Of a stretch of 64,000 bases of DNA, positions 1-13,423 are shown piece after piece. The stretch comes from Spirochaetota bacterium (GTDB lineage: Bacteria > Spirochaetota > UBA4802 > UBA5550), in NCBI GenBank assembly GCA_036848375.1, contig DAIUKG010000006.1, positions 44,941-108,940 on the forward strand. Direction: 5' to 3'. Position numbers and translations under genes: made by a program. Numbering within the stretch: the first letter of the stretch is position 1; each line of letters opens with the position of its first letter. The notes below the pieces were generated by a model that saw nothing but the letters and a program-made list of their open reading frames with translations, had not been told where the DNA came from and made no database searches.

Positions 1-845
1 ATATTAAGGTCTGATTTTAAATGCGATTCAATTATACGAAAGATTGTCAGATAGTTACTTTTCCCGTCTTTGAATGCCTGGTATTCTTTAGAAACAAGAA
101 TATCTTTAAGATGATCTCGAACGTACAATATTTTTTGTATAAATTCAGATTGCGTTACGGTGGATAATGTTTCTGCGTCTTCAACTAAACTTGTCAGGTC
201 CAGCAACAGTTGATAATATTTTTTTTCATTAAAAAGCTCTTCGCATCTTTTGATTTTACGTTCTGTATAATTACGTTCGGTATCAGTAAGATCTCTTTTC
301 CTCAATTCATAGGCAAATGCAAACCGCACGGCTTCAGTAAATATCTCGTCTAAAACCCTTTTTGAATAACAGGAAGGATCTTCGATACCTTTGATTTGAC
401 CTAAAAAAACAAAAGGGGTTCTTCGAATAATATCATGGCTTATTGAAAACAGTGGCTGCTGGATATACTCATACGTGGGAAGATATCGGTACAGTTCTCT
501 TGGCTGAGGAAATATAAAATTTTGCGCTTTTTCCTGTGCAATGTAGGGATTTTTATATTTATATAAATGTTTTAAGAACAAAATGTCTTCATCATCAAAA
601 TAGCCGTTTTGGTTTATATCTATTTTATGCTGGATCAGGCTGCTCTTCATGAAAGGATTATTTATAATGTTATTTAGCTCAGTTTCATCTAATTCATTCC
701 ATTGATTATCACTGTTTAAATCTCCAAGCATAATCAATTCTGAATTAATTTTAACTCGATTTACTGGAAGGTAATAGACTACTCCAGTAATTACACCTGC
801 CAATATAAAAATGATAGTAATGATTATTTTTTTTCTTTTATGCAC
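1..845 (-). CDS. hypothetical membrane-anchored protein, 3' end runs off the window (AT-rich, likely GTG start near 843-845)
   Basis: The minus-strand frame is open from ~845 to position 1. N-terminal K-rich segment plus hydrophobic helix (HKRKKIIITIIFILAGVITGVVYY). ~28% GC, unlike the rest of the window. The ORF track did not list it because it leaves the window. Confidence 0.4.
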   Translation of the reverse strand, partial: MHKRKKIIITIIFILAGVITGVVYYLPVNRVKINSELIMLGDLNSDNQWNELDETELNNIINNPFMKSSLIQHKIDINQNGYFDDEDILFLKHLYKYKNPYIAQEKAQNFIFPQPRELYRYLPTYEYIQQPLFSISHDIIRRTPFVFLGQIKGIEDPSCYSKRVLDEIFTEAVRFAFAYELRKRDLTDTERNYTERKIKRCEELFNEKKYYQLLLDLTSLVEDAETLSTVTQSEFIQKILYVRDHLKDILVSKEYQAFKDGKSNYLTIFRIIESHLKSDLN

Positions 846-1123
846 TTTAATTATCCTTAGCGAATTTAACGACTAAATGAGCTGACAACAGAAATAAAAA
901 AAATTTTAATTCCCATAACGAACAAATACCCCTAAATGATCCTTGACTTTTTGCTCATTAATTTCGATAATCTTACCAGTCATATGAGTCCTCCTTCTGA
1001 TTTAAAAAGTGTGGTTACTTAAATCGTCAGATCGAGGACTTTTTTATTATCTAAATGTGCGAAAGATATTTTCACTACCAGGGAGCGCAGTTGCTATGCT
1101 GAGCCAGGTGTCGTTTTTAATAT

Positions 1124-1243
1124 AAGGGAACCTCTATAAATTACATTTCGGATGTTCCCTTGTGGGCACAACCATTGGATAAATCAGGTTTTATCATTTT
1201 TCAATTAATGAAAAAACCTGATTTTTAGAGGTGCCCATAATTT
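1124..1243. repeat. structured ~120-bp repeat, copy 1 (family also at 4711-4828 inverted and 13115-13288)
   Basis: AAGGGAACCTCTATAAATTACATTTCGGATGTTCCCTTGTGGGCAC...AAATCAGGTTTT...AAAACCTGATTTTTAGAGGTGCCCATAAT. Nested inverted repeats: GGGAAC/GTTCCC, GGGCAC/GTGCCC, AAATCAGGTTTT/AAAACCTGATTT, and ACCTCTA/TAGAGGT between the two ends. Confidence 0.8.
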
Positions 1244-1648
1244 ATAGCCGTAGAAAATATAGATATTATTATTTTTCAAGTATTCAAATATTTTACCTGA
1301 TTCCAAGAAATCTAAATATTTTTCTGATTTAATTTTTAGCCATTCAATATCTTTATAATCTATATTACTTTGATCTCCAATATGCTCTATGAATGTTTCT
1401 TCATAAAATAAATTAGTGTTTTTATAGGATACTTTATTTTTATTATTATCATAGGAATAGAACTGACCAATTATTCTTGGTTTATCTTCATTAATTAATT
1501 TTATAGATAAAAACTCAACTTCAAAATCTACTTCATCTAATGAATCAAATAAATATTTCCATTTACTATTATTCATATAGCTATTTAGTTGTTTTTTCAT
1601 AATAAAATAATGAATATAAAAATGACGCTTAACTAAAATTAACCTCAT
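1205..1648 (-). CDS. hypothetical 147-aa protein, AT-rich; the last codons run into repeat copy 1
   Basis: Complete ORF in the six-frame track. ~27% GC and Asn/Lys/Tyr-rich. No recognisable domain. Confidence 0.45.
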   Translation of the reverse strand: MRLILVKRHFYIHYFIMKKQLNSYMNNSKWKYLFDSLDEVDFEVEFLSIKLINEDKPRIIGQFYSYDNNKNKVSYKNTNLFYEETFIEHIGDQSNIDYKDIEWLKIKSEKYLDFLESGKIFEYLKNNNIYIFYGYKLWAPLKIRFFH

Positions 1649-1649
1649 T

Positions 1650-2340
1650 TCATTTTATCACCACACACCCCATGAGGCACAACGCCAGCCCATCAATTAA
1701 CAGCGTTAGTTCTTCGCCAGCACAAACTGTAATCGACTCTATTGAATAGTCAAGGAAATAATGGGTCCCCCCTGTAGGGACCGGTCGCGACCGGTCCCTA
1801 CAGGGGGGACCCTCGACATCATATACCGGGCCCGCACTCTTCCCTCTCCCGATAGCGCGGTCATGGACGACCGTGCTGGGAAGCAACAGGATGTTGCACA
1901 TGCAGGCGCGTCCAGGATGGACAAAAAAGCGCCTGCCTAGTCTGTCAGGATGACAATACGAGCCCCGCACCATAGGTTCATGCCGCGGACGTGACGGAAG
2001 GTTCCGGTTACACTCTTTTCTGAATCCCGTCCGCCGTGAGGCGGACACCTGTCAGGCGTCTGTCTGAGCCGAAAGGAGCATAGCGACGTCGGCGAGTTTC
2101 GCCCGAAGCCCGTCGCGGCGTCTGAGCGACCGCCCTCTCTTTTCGGCCTTTTCTCTGGGCGATGCAGAGAAAAGGCCATCGTGTTCCCGGCCCCGGCAAC
2201 AACCCTCTCACGCCGGTAACGGCGTGCAACAAGCCGGAGGCTTATATTTTAGCTCGTTCCAAAAGCGGCAAACCCCCAACTCGTGTCACGAGTTAAAACA
2301 CCCCGGGCAGGCTGCCCGCATGATTTCCCACCCCTCTTTA
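1650..2340. other. GC-rich (~58%) non-coding block with many hairpins; candidate structured ncRNA or mobile-element remnant
   Basis: All six frames give Arg/Pro-rich nonsense ORFs. Perfect hairpins GTCCGCC-GTGA-GGCGGAC (2028-2045), GGCCTTTTCTCTG-N7-CAGAGAAAAGGCC (2145-2177), CACGCC-GGTAAC-GGCGTG and AACTCG-N5-CGAGTT. There is a sharp compositional jump against AT-rich flanks. Confidence 0.35.
1765..1810. repeat. 46-bp perfect palindrome GTCCCCCCTGTAGGGACCGGTC GC GACCGGTCCCTACAGGGGGGAC, followed by the conserved tail GGACCCTCGACATCAT
   Basis: Read directly from the sequence. The same C6-CTGCAG-G6 core recurs at 2939-2953 and 3636-3685. The tail recurs at 2952-2967. Confidence 0.9.
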
Positions 2341-2375
2341 TTAAACTTTAAGCGAGGAAGGCGAAAAGCAAAACT

Positions 2376-2780
2376 CTATATGAATACAGATGGTGATACC
2401 GAGAATTTTTTTGCTAATAATTTTATTTGTCTTATATTTAATTCTCTTTTGCCATGTAATATTTCAGATACAACACCCTGTGATCCTATTTCACGCAAAT
2501 CTGATTGTTTTAATCCATGTTCAGACATGAGTTCTTTTAAGATGGTCACAACGCCGGGCTGGTTAATTGTATATTTTTCCTCTTCATACTTTTCAATGAG
2601 CAAGCCAATGGTTTCCATGAGAAGAGCCAAAGGATGTTTATCATTATTGCCGACCTCATCGACGAGTTCATCTAATCTTTTACAAAGATTATTATAATCT
2701 TTTTTATTATGGGGCACGCTCAACAGTTCAGCTACTGAAGGCCACAATTTTTCAATGTTTTTTAATTCTGCACTTAACAT
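2376..2780 (-). CDS. higA: HigA-family antitoxin (C-terminal XRE-type helix-turn-helix)
   Basis: 134 aa. The C-terminus QSDLREIGSQGVVSEILHGKRELNIRQIKLLAKKFSVSPSVFI is a typical HTH_XRE. It lies 1 nt downstream of a higB-like reading frame, the HigBA gene order. Confidence 0.7.
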   Translation of the reverse strand: MLSAELKNIEKLWPSVAELLSVPHNKKDYNNLCKRLDELVDEVGNNDKHPLALLMETIGLLIEKYEEEKYTINQPGVVTILKELMSEHGLKQSDLREIGSQGVVSEILHGKRELNIRQIKLLAKKFSVSPSVFI

Positions 2781-2781
2781 T

Positions 2782-2938
2782 TTATTTTTTCCATTTGTTT
2801 TTATTATATTCAGTATGAGTCAAGACATGGCGAATGTATACTATTTTACGATTATAATGAATAGCCGCGATTAATCGATATTTATTACCTCCAATATTAA
2901 AAACGGTTAAATCATTAACAATATCAGCATATGGAAAT
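2782..2938 (-). pseudogene. higB: HigB (RelE/ParE-fold 'killer protein') toxin gene, missing its 5' end; only the C-terminal ~50 codons are recognisable
   Basis: The minus-strand translation ...YADIVNDLTVFNIGGNKYRLIAAIHYNRKIVYIRHVLTHTEYNKNKWKK* matches the HigB C-terminal motif (GGNKYRLI...Y[IV]R.[IL]GTHxEYDK). Upstream the frame runs into the palindromic element at 2939 with no start codon or toxin N-terminal domain. Confidence 0.6.
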
Positions 2939-3060
2939 ATCCCCCCTGCAGGGGGACCCTCGACATCATTTTTCGGCCTACACTCTTTCTCCCCCTTTAC
3001 GTAAAGGGGGCCGGGGGAATTTCTCCTCCACCTCCCCGGCGGCCCTGTGCGCCACTTTTA
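2939..3060. repeat. G/C-palindrome cluster inserted at the 5' end of higB: CCCCCCTGCAGGGGG + GGACCCTCGACATCAT tail, then CCCCCTTTACGTAAAGGGGG (2989-3008) and CCGGGG...CCCCGG
   Basis: The first ~55 nt (palindrome, ACCCTCGACATCAT, ~8 nt, CGGCCYRCACTCTTYC) are colinear with 1795-1850. This suggests a small palindrome-associated repeat or mobile sequence. Confidence 0.5.
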
Positions 3061-3162
3061 AAACTTTTTTTAATTATCCGGGAACCCCCTTCCTGTTCGC
3101 GGGTTAATTATATAAATTCCGGGAGATACGCCCGATTTCAGATAATAAAGGAAATAAATCCC

Positions 3163-3591
3163 ATGAAACACATGATATACCTGCTGTTCGCGCTGGTCCT
3201 TTTCGCGGTCGCCTGCACTGACGAGGAAAACGACGATTACCAGGTAAGGATCAAGACCTTCGGCTATCCGTGCCTTGGGTGGATCGACAGCGATGATGAA
3301 ACGATAACGTTCGCTGCAGACGATTTTGAGGGGGATGACGGCATCTATTACTACACGAAAAACCTCGACAGCCCCGACACGGTAAGCGTGATTGCCCAGG
3401 GATACTACAACAGCGAGTCAGAGTACACCGAAAGCATTTACGTGTCTATTTACGAGAACGACGAGAAGGTAGCGTCAGAAACCGATACCACGAGCATCAC
3501 CTATGACAACGGCGAGGTCGAATATGTGGAAAAGGCGTACGTTTCGCTTGATTACACCTTCGATGATGATGATGACGACGACGATGAGTGA
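3163..3591 (+). CDS. small acidic lipoprotein (signal peptide with AVAC lipobox; C-terminal poly-Asp tail)
   Basis: MKHMIYLLFALVLFAVAC|TDEEN... 142 aa. It ends ...FDDDDDDDDE. GGAAATAAATCCCATG provides a plausible RBS. Confidence 0.6.
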   Translation: MKHMIYLLFALVLFAVACTDEENDDYQVRIKTFGYPCLGWIDSDDETITFAADDFEGDDGIYYYTKNLDSPDTVSVIAQGYYNSESEYTESIYVSIYENDEKVASETDTTSITYDNGEVEYVEKAYVSLDYTFDDDDDDDDE

Positions 3592-3635
3592 AAGCAGTAA
3601 CACCACGGAATTGAGAGAACATGATGTTGGCAATA

Positions 3636-3695
3636 GAATCCCCCCTGCAGGGAACGGGCATGCCCGTTCCCTGCAGGGGGGATTCTATCTTTTTT
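3636..3695. terminator. 50-bp perfect palindrome (GAATCCCCCCTGCAGGGAACGGGC AT GCCCGTTCCCTGCAGGGGGGATTC) followed by a T-run; likely intrinsic terminator, possibly bidirectional
   Basis: A GC-rich stem is followed by TCTTTTTTACT, 45 nt downstream of the lipoprotein gene stop. Confidence 0.6.
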
Positions 3696-3774
3696 ACTAT
3701 TATTGAAACAGCAGGCGCAACCCGGCCTGTATGAGCCAGGCGTTGTCGAGCGAATATTTCACCCGGTACTCATC

Positions 3775-4644
3775 CTAGTATCTTTTAAACTCGCTTCTGC
3801 CGTAAATATATGACGCGCCGAACTGGTACCCGGCAAAAGCCACGAGGGCGATATTGCGGTGGATGTATGTGGAGATACGTTCGCCCGCGCGATGGTATTC
3901 ATAAAAGAGATTTTCTTTTTTGTTTTCCCTGCGGTTGAGCATGTACACGTCCTTGTCATAAGAATATTCCGTGCCCAGGATCAAAAACGAAAGCGGCCTG
4001 AACTCAAACGCGGTAAAGATTGACGCGACCGGAATATATCTGAACCGAAGGGTAAAATAGTCTTTCGGTTTCCAGACAAGCCGGGTTAACAACCCGAGGG
4101 TGAAGTCAACTTCATCATTTACAAACTTGTAACTGATCATGGGGATAGGTATGGGCAGGCCGATGTTGCGGGTTATCAGCGAAGAGTAGTTGACCCCGAA
4201 GCTGACCGAATGGGGCCCCTCCTGATAAATCTCATAGTACATCGTGGAAGTAATGGCAAAATCATCGAAACTTCTGAACGGCCTGTTGGTATTGTTGGAA
4301 AAACTGAAAAGAAAACTCACCTTGTCAAGATAAAAGCTGAAGGTCTCCTGTATCCGGTACAGCTCGACAGGCACAGGAATGTCCGTTTCGCGATTGGTGT
4401 AGGTAAAAAACAGATAGTTTTTGATTCTCGTGCCGCTGTTCACGTGAAACGTGTCAATGAACGAGGCGTCACAGGCATTGACATCCTCATCAGGGCCTTC
4501 ACTCTTGTGATACAGAAACGTGAGAATGTGGTCCGGCTGTTTTTCTTTTGGGGGGATGTTTTTGTTCTCGTCATCTGCCGTAACCCTGTGGGGAAAGAAA
4601 ATTATGCAGATGATCAGGGCTGTTGTGTAAAATATATGCTTCAT
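3775..4644 (-). CDS. hypothetical secreted protein, possibly an outer-membrane beta-barrel
   Basis: 289 aa from MKHIFYTTALIICIIFFPHRVTA (signal peptide). Alternating hydrophobic pattern with many aromatic residues. It ends ...GRSEFKRY. No family recognised. Confidence 0.5.
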   Translation of the reverse strand: MKHIFYTTALIICIIFFPHRVTADDENKNIPPKEKQPDHILTFLYHKSEGPDEDVNACDASFIDTFHVNSGTRIKNYLFFTYTNRETDIPVPVELYRIQETFSFYLDKVSFLFSFSNNTNRPFRSFDDFAITSTMYYEIYQEGPHSVSFGVNYSSLITRNIGLPIPIPMISYKFVNDEVDFTLGLLTRLVWKPKDYFTLRFRYIPVASIFTAFEFRPLSFLILGTEYSYDKDVYMLNRRENKKENLFYEYHRAGERISTYIHRNIALVAFAGYQFGASYIYGRSEFKRY

Positions 4645-4710
4645 TGACAAGCTCACCTCTCCACTGTCTCACGACTATTGTTACAAGACCCGGGAAGGGT
4701 CAAGATAATT

Positions 4711-4828
4711 TTAAGGGCACCTCTAAAAATCAGGTTTTTTCATTAATTGAAAAATGATAAAACCTGATTTATCCAATGGTTGTGCCCACAAGGGAACATC
4801 CGAAATGTAATTTATAGAGGTTCCCTTA
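4711..4828. repeat. structured repeat copy 2, reverse complement of copy 1
   Basis: AAGGGCACCTCTAAAAATCAGGTTTTTTCATTAATTGAAAAATGATAAAACCTGATTTATCCAATGGTTGTGCCCACAAGGGAACATCCGAAATGTAATTTATAGAGGTTCCCTT is a near-perfect reverse complement of 1124-1243. Confidence 0.8.
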
Positions 4829-4983
4829 AAATTCTGCTTTCACGATTTTCCAAAAGTACCGAAACCAGAACTTCAATTGCCGGGATGCGTGATGACGACG
4901 ACACAAGCCGTGCAGCAGATCAATGCCACGGATGTGACGGACGATACACGTGCACACGAGAGATGTCATCCCCCCTTGCACAT

Positions 4984-5012
4984 AAAAAAAAAGATGAACC
5001 GTGCGGTCCATC
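4984..5012 (-). terminator. hairpin (GATGGACC-GCAC-GGTTCATC on the minus strand) followed by a 9-nt U-run, downstream of the 5051-5788 gene
   Basis: The stem has one mismatch in 8 bp. It is followed by TTTTTTTTT on the transcribed strand. Confidence 0.4.
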
Positions 5013-5050
5013 TTAGCGAATGAACTTATTGAAACCCGGTTAGATGCCTG

Positions 5051-5788
5051 TTAAAACCGAATCCCGAAAAACACGGAAACCTCAACTCCGTTATAATCCG
5101 TGTTTTCAAAAATGTGGTAATACTTCGCCTCAACACCCACCGTGTATCGCTGCATAAACGTGTACATCACGTTAACGCCGCCGTCGATCATCATGTCCGC
5201 GGAAGCATCATTCATCACATTGTTCCGCTCTTCCATGTTCGCGATGATGACAGCAAGCCCCACTCCGGCCAGCAGCTGAAGGTCAAAGCCCTTTCCCAGG
5301 GGGAAGGTCAGGAACGGATGAGCGATAAAATACAGAAACCGGATGTTGCCGTCATACGTGTTGTCGTCAAGCTGGGTGAACCCCCCGTCAACTCCGAGCC
5401 CGAACCACCAGATGATGTCCTGGTACTGAAAGAATATCCTTCCGGACACCTGACCGTCGACGATGTCGCCCAGGTCCTGGAGGGGGACAAAGTAGCCCAG
5501 GTCAAACCCGAGGAGCATTTTCTTCTTCGGCACCGCAGCTGACTCGTCAAGTTTTTCATCCTTTGCCTGTTTTTCATCTTTAACCGCTTTTGCCGCCGCC
5601 TTTGACAAGGGCTTCGTTGTCTGCACGGTCTTTTTTACCGCGGTCTTTCCGGCCTGGGCTTTCTCGCCAGCGGCCCATGCCCGGCCAAAACCCGCGAAAA
5701 CAAGCATCGCGGCAAGGACGGCGGCGCATACCCACACAGGCCGGCGGCGCTCCGTGTATTTTTCAGAAGAAACATGCTTACTCATCAT
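5051..5788 (-). CDS. outer-membrane beta-barrel protein (OmpA-like barrel/OMP_b-brl type) with a Lys/Ala-rich linker; C-terminal Phe
   Basis: Start taken at MMSKH, where GAGG lies 7 nt upstream; the ORF track begins 21 codons earlier. Signal peptide VWVCAAVLAAMLVFAGFGRAWA. Amphipathic beta-strand patterning. It ends ...VSVFFGIRF. Confidence 0.55.
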   Translation of the reverse strand: MMSKHVSSEKYTERRRPVWVCAAVLAAMLVFAGFGRAWAAGEKAQAGKTAVKKTVQTTKPLSKAAAKAVKDEKQAKDEKLDESAAVPKKKMLLGFDLGYFVPLQDLGDIVDGQVSGRIFFQYQDIIWWFGLGVDGGFTQLDDNTYDGNIRFLYFIAHPFLTFPLGKGFDLQLLAGVGLAVIIANMEERNNVMNDASADMMIDGGVNVMYTFMQRYTVGVEAKYYHIFENTDYNGVEVSVFFGIRF

Positions 5789-12479: not shown

Positions 12480-12875
12480 TTATTTCAGCATCACCAGCGA
12501 CAGTCCTTTAATTTCCTTAAAGTGCTTGTCTCGCGTTATGAGTTGCAGACCGTATTGAATTGCCAGTGCAGCAACCCAAATATCATTTTCGGGGATAGGT
12601 TTGCCTTTCTTTTTCAGTTCACTTTTAAGGCTGCCATATATTTTTGCTGTCTCGATATTATTTTCGAGGATTGAAGAACAGGCAATGAACTCTTCTAATC
12701 TTTTTTTATTCTCATTCTTTCGTAAAGAATTATGAATGCCATAGTACAATTCACCAATAACAGTATTACAAATAAAAATTTCTTTTGCTGTAGTAAGCTT
12801 TTTAATCACTTCCCGGTCATTATTAAAAAGAGCAATAATAATATTTGTATCGAGTAAATACTTACCACTCGCCAT
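12480..12875 (-). CDS. vapC: PIN-domain ribonuclease toxin (VapC family)
   Basis: MASGKYLLDTNIIIALFNND... carries the conserved PIN acidic residues. It overlaps the upstream small gene by ~14 nt. The stop codon abuts the rlmB stop with no intergenic space. Confidence 0.8.
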   Translation of the reverse strand: MASGKYLLDTNIIIALFNNDREVIKKLTTAKEIFICNTVIGELYYGIHNSLRKNENKKRLEEFIACSSILENNIETAKIYGSLKSELKKKGKPIPENDIWVAALAIQYGLQLITRDKHFKEIKGLSLVMLK

Positions 12876-13092
12876 TATCAACCTTCTCACAGCCATCTTC
12901 TATTACTTCAAGAATTTGGTGGGCCTCGGCATCACTTAATGTTCCTGCAAATTTCAATAAATCTTTACCGGATTTACCTTTCGTCTGAACGCTGGCCAAT
13001 GCATGGGCAAAATCCTGTACTTTTTTTTGCAGATCAAGAGGAAGCTTTTCCATATCATTTATCAGCTTCTTTTTAATTTCAGGTCTAATCAT
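12862..13092 (-). CDS. cognate antitoxin (DUF2281-like small protein)
   Basis: 76 aa, ...KLPLDLQKKVQDFAHAL... It sits immediately upstream of the PIN gene and overlaps it, as in type II TA operons. Confidence 0.55.
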   Translation of the reverse strand: MIRPEIKKKLINDMEKLPLDLQKKVQDFAHALASVQTKGKSGKDLLKFAGTLSDAEAHQILEVIEDGCEKVDNGEW

Positions 13093-13114
13093 AAAGCTCC
13101 TCCCGGATTAGAAT

Positions 13115-13288
13115 AAGGGAACCTCTCTAAATAACATTTTTGATGTTCCCTTGTGGGTATCCCGATTCCTTATAGCTATTTAATGAATCGGGAGATAAAT
13201 CAGGTTTTATACCCCTACTAACTCCCCCTATCAGGGGGAGAATAAAAGAGGGGGTTAAAAACCTAATTTTTAGAGGTACCCATAATAA
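13115..13288. repeat. structured repeat copy 3, same orientation as copy 1, expanded by two extra stem-loops
   Basis: It shares AAGGGAACCTCTCTAAATAACATTTTTGATGTTCCCTTGTGGGTA...ATAAATCAGGTTTTAT...AAAACCTAATTTTTAGAGGTACCCATAAT. Inserted hairpins are TCCCGATTC...GAATCGGGA and CTCCCCC-CTATCA-GGGGGAG. The GGGCAC/GTGCCC stem of copy 1 is replaced by GGGTA/TACCC, a compensatory change. Confidence 0.75.
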
Positions 13289-13423
13289 TTAATGTTTACT
13301 GTATTTTACGTTTCTAAAATGACAAATTAAAATTATTAAGTATAAGCTACTATCAGAATTGTTAGTAGTCACTTCTCCTTTTGTAAAGGATATTATTGAT
13401 CATAGAAAAAAATATTATCAGTC

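Follow-up and report, generated by a model that had tools for sequence, protein, structure and literature searches.

Three perfect palindromes lie within 2 kb of one another in the window, the 64,000-nt stretch of contig DAIUKG010000006.1 from an uncultured Spirochaetota bacterium that we analysed (Table 1). They are copies of a bacterial repeat type that is widespread and already described. Copies 1 and 3 are intergenic, and copy 2 sits at the edge of a higB toxin gene that is now a pseudogene: what remains of it, beside its intact partner higA, matches positions 26-73 of the 74 positions of the HigB_toxin family (PF09907, E 1.4e-21). This bears out the claim of an earlier, sequence-only reading of this DNA that one of the palindromes lies at a gene break. 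The segments around copies 1 and 2 form direct repeats spaced ~1.17 kb, and between them lie a GC-rich block dense in hairpins and the higA/truncated-higB cassette; copy 3 lies between two convergent genes, at 3163-3591 on the plus strand and 3775-4656 on the minus strand, and is followed by CTTTTTT. These three are the only REP copies in 73 kb, the window together with 8.8 kb of its left flank, which is sparse next to REP-rich genomes.

Table 1 Features of the REP-bearing segment, in positions of the window.
Feature	Positions	Strand	Description and basis
REP copy 1	1763-1812	.	50-nt perfect palindrome; direct sequence reading
REP copy 2, short allele	2942-2955	.	perfect palindrome, CCCCCTGCAGGGGG
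REP copy 3	3633-3688	.	56-nt perfect palindrome
Copy 1 tail	1813-1850	+	right part of the ~98-nt unit; whole unit ~1753-1850
Copy 2 tail	2956-2995	+	right part of the shared unit; whole unit ~2932-2995
higA, intact partner	2376-2780	-	HTH_3 match
5'-truncated higB toxin remnant	2781-2935	-	ends at copy 2; translation and Pfam

At the centre of copy 1 is a 28-nt double-foot core (1774-1801, GTAGGGACCGGTCGCGACCGGTCCCTAC) with the feet GTAG...CTAC, extended outward by CCCCCCT/AGGGGGG and then by GGGT/ACCC. Copy 3 has its own 28-nt core (3647-3674, GCAGGGAACGGGCATGCCCGTTCCCTGC) and the same C6T/AG6 extension, followed by flanks peculiar to it, ATAGAAT/ATTCTAT, and it is without the tail that follows the other two copies. 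The feet of copies 2 and 3 read GCAG...CTGC, and copy 2 has a left arm with C6 and a right arm with G5. All of the window copies have GGG...CCC after the foot and fully paired stems with a 4-nt tip. As DNA hairpins, copies 1 and 3 are very stable (dG -31.5 kcal/mol, z -9.1, and dG -33.8 kcal/mol, z -12.7, respectively). Direct reading of copy 3 against the family consensus reveals that each of its half-site differences, five of five, is compensated in the opposite arm.

The palindromes are real and far above chance: perfect palindromes reached at most 22 nt when the window was shuffled 100 times with its dinucleotides preserved, and CCCCCTGYAGGG, allowing at most one mismatch, occurs 7 times where 0.31 occurrences are expected. 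Different assemblers, applied independently to at least four samples, recovered the same structures, and this agreement rules out that the palindrome sequences are assembly artefacts. The sequence-only reading had reported three perfect palindromes with a CTGCAG core. All three are present, but their extents and core were partly misread. Its copies 1 and 3, at 1765-1810 and 3636-3685, both fall inside the true palindromes; copy 3 does carry C6-TGCAG...CTGCA-G6, whereas the core of copy 1 is CTGTAG/CTACAG rather than CTGCAG. For copy 2, the sequence given at 2939-2953 (ATCCCCCCTGCAGGG) is not palindromic; the palindrome is CCCCCTGCAGGGGG, a few nucleotides to the right.

The palindromes do belong to one family, as had been suggested, and the family extends well beyond this genome. 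Copy 1 is one compensated base pair away from the family consensus, GTAGGGACAGGTCGCGACCTGTCCCTAC, and its core is identical to those of two metagenome loci (L040 and L141). A metagenome scan with the inner 22 nt of the consensus returned at least 119 loci, and a genome scan found the CCCCCTGTAGGG-N16-CCCTACAGGGGG architecture in at least eight phyla. In 12 such copies the inner stem, which the search pattern left unconstrained, is 98.6% paired, with 32 double-sided changes and zero wobble pairs, and no shuffle reached their covariation score. Because the compensated changes are all Watson-Crick, they point to selection or generation at the level of DNA rather than RNA. Foot bases outside the search pattern are also conserved over 250 half-sites (G 89%, T 88%, A 94%); the C at foot position 2 found in copies 2 and 3 is present in 20 of the 250 half-sites (8%) of this related metagenome set. 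The centres of related copies are not palindromic in every case. Palindromic extensions bring some of them to 50-84 nt, and extensions of at least 4 bp occur in 12 of 91 copies compared to 0.36 expected.

Our literature search found no paper with the exact inner 22-mer, and Rfam returned nothing at gathering scores across the whole window; at E ≤5, searched over 900-5100, there were only spurious microRNA-type matches to the hairpins. A scan of viral contigs for the palindrome gave a single match, adjoining a contig end, that is probably a fold-back.

In other genomes the palindrome is tied to RAYT transposase genes. The consensus GTAGGGACAGGTCGCGACCTGTCCCTAC flanks such genes, or sits in frame inside them, at a Bacteroidota locus, at a Leptospiraceae locus and at metagenome loci; a RAYT homologue lies at or around the palindrome in 20 of the 119 metagenome loci among the matches listed, several with the palindrome in frame. 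At locus L015, a 183-aa Y1_Tnp protein (Pfam score 28 bits against a cutoff of 23) is encoded between two such palindromes, one of which is a single compensated pair from window copy 1. Its best NCBIfam match is the REP-associated tyrosine transposase (E 1e-17) and it carries the motifs NHIH, WQ and YIKNNP; phmmer found no significant match to it among PDB sequences. The peptide GTGRD, encoded by the REP, is present in 75 of the 120 closest homologues. The Leptospiraceae gene (L152), from the window's own phylum, has one internal REP and three more nearby. Within the 73 kb read here, a single-sequence search found no RAYT gene or fragment, and neither did a RAYT/Y1_Tnp profile search (best E 1.7).

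These features match a described class. Quentin et al. (2018; PMC6006769) report that the REPs of TnpA_REP/RAYT subclass 2.4 are double-foot, with 5' GT[AG]G and 3' C[TC]AC feet and three G-C pairs at the bottom of the stem, that the proteins have the motifs NH[IFV]H, WQ and YIxNNP, and that REPs are inserted in frame in tnpA_REP. At the level of sequence, the relatives establish the REP type of the window as the cognate sequence of one clade of domesticated HUH/Y1 transposases, TnpA_REP/RAYT subclass 2.4 (Bertels group 4): their Y1 proteins have these motifs, and REPs lie beside the subclass 2.4 genes and often in frame within them. The occurrence of the type in Bacteroidota, Cyanobacteria and scattered other phyla is also shared with the subclass. 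All of the window copies have the three G-C pairs at the base of a long, fully paired stem, and they are extragenic. The feet of copy 1 fall within GT[AG]G...C[TC]AC; the GCAG feet of copies 2 and 3 do not, but they are covered by the GYAG degeneracy of the GTAG REP foot (Di Nocera 2013; PMC3733652). The window differs from the class description in three further respects: all three copies have the additional C5-6T/AG5-6 extension, copies 1 and 3 have locus-specific palindromic flanks besides, and the 73 kb contain no cognate gene. Taken together, we consider it quite likely that the three palindromes are double-foot REPs of subclass 2.4. With this, a repeat that lacks annotation in an uncultured Spirochaetota genome would join subclass 2.4 / group 4, a REP/RAYT class that has been described but little studied.

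The mechanism that we propose for double-foot REPs borrows from groups 2 and 3, as biochemical work on the enzymes of subclass 2.4 is, to our knowledge, lacking. The 28-nt unit consists of a 5' G[T/C]AG foot, a fully paired stem whose first three pairs are G-C, a tip of 4 nt and, as the reverse complement of the first foot, the 3' foot C[T/C][A/G]C, with the further C5-6-T / A-G5-6 extension in the window. Since the unit is symmetric, the hairpin that forms, with its GTAG foot, is the same on either DNA strand. By analogy with group 2 and 3 enzymes in vitro, a RAYT would bind the folded single-stranded hairpin together with the GTAG foot and would then cut at the CT dinucleotide adjoining the hairpin, allowing the hairpin to be copied or moved in trans. 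In the work of Corneloup (2021; PMC8266576), the enzyme uses a single-stranded hairpin and GTAG and cleaves at CT; every window copy has a CT directly 5' to its foot.

The sequence-only reading had also described a common tail after copies 1 and 2, and this tail is real: GGACCCTCGACATCAT is identical downstream of both. A local alignment of the two units spans ~98 nt, made up of the hairpin, ~7 nt on its left side and ~40 nt on its right, in which 21 identical nucleotides after the hairpin are followed by ~20 similar ones. This raises the alternative that the mobile unit is the ~98-nt hairpin plus tail, a non-autonomous element specific to the lineage (analogous to REPINs or PATEs but with one hairpin) that inserted independently upstream of a DUF6678 gene and into higB. 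In its favour, copy 2 lies exactly at the higB break point, and the two copies differ by a compensated change (GTAG/CTAC in copy 1, GCAG/CTGC in copy 2), which indicates that they diverged as hairpins and that neither is a very recent duplicate of the other. But the tail signature, ACCCTCGACATCAT...CACTCTT, is absent at copy 3 and at ~130 hairpins of the same type in 1.1 Mb of related loci from other genomes; with up to two mismatches allowed, a search of all the loci collected finds it only in the organism's own contigs, and the viral-contig scan gave no match. Neither the claim that a guide-like tail is a feature of the family nor the expectation that its similarity would reach copy 3 or the relatives in other genomes survives this comparison, and we infer that the ~40-nt tail is not part of the REP family. 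Nor does the missing 5' part of higB lie beyond the shared unit, as translation and direct reading of 2996-3160 reveal, which argues against a simple insertion. Only two copies of the unit are known, and as direct repeats at this spacing they fit local duplication or recombination. We therefore regard an independently mobile ~98-nt element as unlikely. In the account based on subclass 2.4 REPs, local duplication or recombination between REP-bearing segments would have produced the shared unit, and higB would have lost its 5' part in the process. A decayed RAYT gene in the tail or in the GC-rich block was ruled out, as neither has any similarity in any frame.

Copy 2 occurs as two alleles. At its site, L004 has the full 40-nt palindrome CCCCCTGCAGGG-ACCGGTCGCGACCGGT-CCCTGCAGGGGG; aligned against L004 along with L002 and L005, copy 2 of the window is 25 nt shorter. 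The short allele folds into a far less stable hairpin (dG -6.4 vs -27.0 kcal/mol for the full allele). It is also found in L151, from the same sample as L004, so that both alleles were assembled in a single sample. The length difference itself is observed directly; it may have arisen by a later deletion of 25 nt from inside the hairpin of copy 2, as would fit the instability of long palindromes. Long perfect palindromes also break metagenome assemblies at this site, and their length varies between the contigs of one sample.

A bolder proposal, which we think improbable, is that in this Spirochaetota lineage the REP and a fixed ~40-nt 3' tail move as a ~98-nt composite that is still active, to which the truncated higB and the segregating hairpin-deletion allele would attest; more generally, the locus-specific perfect extensions may reflect a process in which inverted duplication of the flank lengthens a palindrome on both sides of its REP centre. 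The REP/RAYT literature cited here contains no description of such outward growth for REPs.

Subterminal hairpins with a guide-like tail, used by a classical TnpA, are the hallmark of IS200/IS605 ends and of PATEs, to which the palindromes had been assigned on sequence alone. The appeal to an HUH/Y1 transposase names the right superfamily: the wider REP family is associated with HUH/Y1 enzymes that are relatives of IS200 TnpA (Pfam Y1_Tnp), and in both systems hairpins are recognised as single-stranded DNA (PMC8266576) and the guide is a tetranucleotide located 5' to the foot of the hairpin. The kind of element is contradicted by the anatomy, however. IS200/IS605 and PATE elements are bounded by distinct, imperfect left and right hairpins, whereas every window copy consists of a single hairpin, symmetric and perfect, that has GTAG-type feet at both ends; there is no element body, and another type of end was not found. 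In REPs it is the GTAG foot itself that acts as guide (PMC8266576), and the tail is not conserved at copy 3 or across the 1.1 Mb of related loci. In addition, the best match of the associated proteins is to the RAYT model, they have subclass 2.4 motifs, and the 73 kb hold no Y1_Tnp gene or fragment. Symmetric REPs account for these features, and we regard IS200/IS605 or PATE ends as highly improbable.

We also considered that the palindromes are ordinary terminators or protein-binding sites, alike by chance or by local gene conversion and without mobile-element ancestry. A consensus scan does score copy 3 as terminator-like on both strands and copy 1 on the minus strand. Copy 3, a GC-rich hairpin followed by a T-run between convergent genes, has the layout of a Rho-independent bidirectional terminator, in line with the suggestion that the third copy doubles as one. 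The C-variant matches in the genome scan are plain terminator hairpins with loops, of which, on our estimate, ~20 could be chance products of the many hairpins in 185,000 genomes. But a perfect stem of 26-28 bp far exceeds what a terminator needs, and the sequence belongs to a dispersed repeat family. Terminator function explains neither the constant length of 28 nt nor the conservation of the feet. Moreover, the core of copy 1 is identical in unrelated metagenome contigs and lies one compensated pair from the sequence of at least 119 loci tied to RAYT genes; this identity across genomes and the association with RAYT contradict the reading, to which we attach almost no credence. As double-foot REPs, the very stable hairpins may instead act as transcription terminators secondarily. 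On this basis, the annotation of the locus gains a predicted terminator, in that copy 3 probably serves the two convergent genes, as well as the higB pseudogene; a role for copy 1 as a minus-strand terminator is possible. The earlier caveat, that these might be REP terminators of the kind found at gene ends everywhere in a species, was right in that they are REPs, but three copies clustered in 73 kb are not everywhere.

Two further candidates were discarded: an integron attC site or cassette array, as there are no R boxes (RYYYAAC...GTTRRRY), the feet are GTAG/CTAC and the perfect stems have no unpaired bases, and a hairpin telomere or protelomerase site, which the perfect pairing through the centre had suggested and which was dropped given the RAYT link and the related centres that are not always palindromic.

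The window copies resemble the GTAG REPs and REPINs of Proteobacteria (PMC3733652; Bertels and Rainey 2011, PMC3116915; PMC8266576) in having a GTAG tag beside a GC-rich hairpin, in their extragenic location, often after genes, in clustered copies, and in the presumed single-strand recognition and cleavage at CT. The two differ in structure. In the classical Proteobacteria REPs the tag is unpaired and present at one end only, and the stems are 6-13 bp and often bulged; in the window both feet carry the tag, in paired form, and the stems are 12-26 bp and perfect. They differ in distribution as well: Proteobacteria REPs are species-specific and present in hundreds of copies, often as REPIN doublets, whereas the window type has a low local copy number, and one exact 28-mer recurs in many unrelated metagenome contigs and at least two phyla.

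Direct reading, a repeat search and a perfect-palindrome search of the window define three related palindromes (copies 1 to 3), and these are the only copies of their kind in 73 kb, the window plus its left flank.

The palindromes of the window and the gene remnant beside copy 2
Feature	Position	Strand	Description
Copy 1	1763-1812		50-nt perfect palindrome, GGGT-CCCCCCT-GTAGGGACCGGTCG/CGACCGGTCCCTAC-AGGGGGG-ACCC
Copy 2	2942-2955		short form, CCCCCTGCAGGGGG only
Copy 3	3633-3688		56-nt perfect palindrome, ATAGAAT-CCCCCCT-GCAGGGAACGGGCA/TGCCCGTTCCCTGC-AGGGGGG-ATTCTAT
higB remnant	2781-2935	-	HigB_toxin positions 26-73 of 74; abuts copy 2

These palindromes far exceed chance: 100 dinucleotide shuffles of the window produced no perfect palindrome longer than 22 nt, and the arm motif occurs seven times against 0.31 expected. 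Folded as single strands of DNA, copies 1 and 3 form hairpins of very high stability (-31.5 and -33.8 kcal/mol; z-scores of -9 and -13). The shuffle and motif counts bear out the palindromes as the real feature that the sequence-only reading took them for, with corrections of detail; its coordinates fall within copies 1 and 3, but 2939-2953, given for copy 2, is itself no palindrome, and the CTGCAG core claimed for copy 1 is actually CTGTAG/CTACAG.

The window organism is an uncultured Spirochaetota bacterium from anaerobic digesters, and because near-identical contigs come from several samples and different assemblers, an assembly artefact is ruled out as the origin of the palindromes. At the copy 2 site, the fetched contig L004 carries a full 40-nt palindrome (CCCCCTGCAGGG-ACCGGTCGCGACCGGT-CCCTGCAGGGGG); the window allele is 25 nt shorter. 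Since the inner 16 nt of the full allele are identical to copy 1, copies 1 and 2 are one and the same element, with a compensated change in both arms (GTAG/CTAC versus GCAG/CTGC) and an internal deletion. L151, a second contig from the sample of L004, ends in the short allele, and two further contigs break at or near this site. Assemblies come apart here at long perfect palindromes, and polymorphism at the site is possible. Contig ends from several samples lie at or near copy 2 (L004:1-245, L005:1-120 and L151:1-60; window about 2843-2962); of two such ends that overlap in sample 3300009775, one has the full 40-nt hairpin and the other the short form.

We scanned 185,000 genomes, one per species, with the pattern CCCCCTGYAGGG-N0-30-CCCTRCAGGGGG and obtained 23 loci in two classes; the window's own genome did not appear in this set. 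Members of the CTGCAGGG class are ordinary hairpins bearing a loop, and we estimate that chance would yield roughly as many among the very many terminator hairpins of so many genomes. The CTGTAGGG class nearly always has exactly 16 nt between the arms; this interior is palindromic or nearly so and varies from genome to genome. Its hosts are Obscuribacterales, Oscillospiraceae, Bacteroidota, two cyanobacteria, Fibrobacterota, Spirochaetes, Leptospirales and Desulfacinum. When 12 CTGTAGGG-type copies are aligned, pairing is 98.6% in the six inner base pairs left free by the search pattern, with 32 double-sided changes and no wobble or one-sided change; compensation is thus strictly Watson-Crick, and no shuffle or slid register approaches this covariation score. 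What is conserved is therefore the foot CCCCCT-GTAG-GG together with a fixed-size hairpin.

Scanning metagenomes for the inner 22 nt (GGGACNGGTCGCGACCNGTCCC) returned at least 119 loci; those listed include no contig of the window organism. Among the matches listed, the consensus is a 28-nt perfect palindrome, GTAG-GGACAGGTCGCGACCTGTCC-CTAC, and at the three foot positions that the pattern leaves out, the base is respectively G in 89%, T in 88% (C in 8%) and A in 94% of 250 half-sites. One exact 28-mer recurs in many unrelated metagenome contigs and in at least two phyla, and the core of copy 1 recurs exactly in two loci (L040 and L141). Some loci (L070:3186-3733, L048:1836-1939 and L140:8976-9200) are tandem arrays in which a REP (repetitive extragenic palindrome) or half-REP alternates with short fixed spacers; in L070 the REP alternates with repeated N-terminal fragments of a gene for a RAYT, the REP-associated domesticated transposase. 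In a Spirochaetes MAG (L025:3300-3514), a Cas12a-type CRISPR array (repeat ...AATTTCTACTGTTGTAGAT) ends in a degenerate repeat, and a C5-type REP follows downstream within about 50 nt. A DUF488 gene adjoins the REP there, and another adjoins the RAYT in L152.

The link to transposases comes from the relatives. In the Bacteroidota locus L015, a palindrome whose core (CCTGTAGGGACAGGTCGCGACCTGTCCCTACAGG) is one compensated pair away from copy 1 overlaps the stop codon of a 183-aa gene, and just upstream of the gene stands a second one, of 62 nt, whose inner sequence is identical. The protein matches Pfam Y1_Tnp (28 bits, cutoff 23), its best NCBIfam match is the REP-associated tyrosine transposase (E 1e-17, under the equivalog cutoff), and it contains the motifs NHIH, WQ and YIKNNP. 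Homologues occur at or around the palindrome in 20 of the 119 metagenome matches listed, in several of which the palindrome lies inside the RAYT reading frame. The family is large (3360 matches, E up to 1e-5), and many members carry the JGI label 'REP element-mobilizing transposase RayT'. GTGRD, the translated palindrome, appears in 75 of the 120 closest homologues (the best 120 of 3360), often more than once. In the window's own phylum, a Leptospiraceae RAYT has one REP within the gene and three more at most about 1 kb downstream. We found no RAYT gene or fragment in the window plus 8.8 kb to its left, which says little because RAYTs are mostly single-copy (PMC5581495).

These features agree with TnpA_REP subclass 2.4, which is Bertels group 4 (Quentin et al, 2018, PMC6006769). 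Its proteins average about 194 aa, bear the motifs NH[IFV]H, WQ and YIxNNP, and are found in Cyanobacteria and Bacteroidetes and, here and there, in other phyla; among its REPs, which are long and start their stem with three G-C pairs, some have a 'double foot' (5' GT[AG]G, 3' C[TC]AC), and in-frame REP insertions occur within the tnpA_REP genes themselves (PMC6006769). Motifs, hosts, REP anatomy and in-frame insertions all match our data, the transposase features being those of the relatives. Copies 2 and 3 have GCAG feet, which lie outside GT[AG]G but within the reported degeneracy of the GTAG tag to GYAG (Di Nocera et al, 2013, PMC3733652). We conclude that the window palindromes are very probably double-foot REPs, with a foot at both hairpin ends, of a RAYT subclass 2.4 system. 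The earlier assignment to IS200/IS605-type or PATE ends named the right transposase superfamily but the wrong kind of element, and is set aside. Group 2 and group 3 enzymes recognise the folded single-stranded REP plus GTAG and cleave on either side of the hairpin (5' or 3'), at a CT dinucleotide, with GTAG aiding site choice (Corneloup et al, 2021, PMC8266576). By analogy, a subclass 2.4 enzyme would recognise the folded hairpin and GTAG and cleave at CT; a CT lies directly 5' of the foot in every window copy (CCCCCCT-G[T/C]AG). The REP class itself is already described.

The shared tail that had been read as part of the transposon signature is real but local. GGACCCTCGACATCAT lies 3' of both copies 1 and 2, within a common unit of about 98 nt in local alignment (1753-1850 versus 2932-2995) beyond which the flanks are unrelated. 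Because it is missing from copy 3, from all other fetched loci (1.1 Mb, about 130 related hairpins) and from the viral collection, the tail appears to be private to these neighbouring copies within the sequences searched, and no feature of the family. Where the shared unit ends, 36 nt past copy 2, lies another 20-nt perfect palindrome (2991-3010, CCCCCTTTACGTAAAGGGGG), with the C5...G5 frame of the REPs and without the GTAG foot.

One copy was also thought to interrupt a gene. The higB remnant does abut copy 2, with an intact higA adjoining, but this is no simple insertion because the 5' portion that higB lacks does not resume across the unit. Between copies 1 and 2, which form direct repeats at a distance of 1.17 kb, lie a non-coding block rich in GC and dense in hairpins (1813-2345) and the AT-rich cassette of higA; we read this arrangement as a putative duplication or recombination between REP-bearing segments. 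The 530-nt block stands amid AT-rich genes, holds about ten unrelated local hairpins, has RNA fold z-scores of -3.9 (minus strand) and -4.8 (plus strand) and matches no Rfam family; it may represent a structured RNA or the accumulated remains of palindromic elements. Copy 3, with CTTTTTT behind it, separates two convergent genes, 3163-3591 (+) and 3775-4656 (-). By its score it resembles a terminator on both strands, in keeping with its predicted second role as a terminator; copy 1 does so on the minus strand.

Some copies extend outward into 50-84-nt perfect palindromes. Extension by at least 4 bp is seen in 12 of 91 copies of the 28-nt REP against 0.36 expected, giving perfect palindromes of 46-84 nt whose flank sequence is unique to each locus (L052, L056, L063, L098, L105, L118 and L122 from metagenomes, and L015:4993-5060); window copies 1 and 3 belong among them. 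Possible sources are inverted duplication of the flank or insertion at the tip of a hairpin already in place.

All three REP copies lie in a 3.47-kb segment enclosed by a 118-nt repeat in inverted orientation (1123-1240 and 4711-4828, 99% complementary), with a third, diverged copy at 13113-13291. Each repeat has its own terminal inverted repeats of about 17 nt (AGGGAACCTCTATAAAT / ATTTTTAGAGGTGCCCT) and an internal 18-bp hairpin, and so looks like a MITE. The inverted pair could permit inversion of the segment; its orientation is identical in all assemblies seen. Window positions 1-3000 form an AT-rich island (32-43% GC, versus about 55% in core genes) with higA and its truncated higB, a DUF6678 gene and small orphan ORFs. 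A PIN-toxin pair (12480-13090) adjoins the third MITE-like copy, and the region 12480-12875 was noted together with the AT-rich left end.
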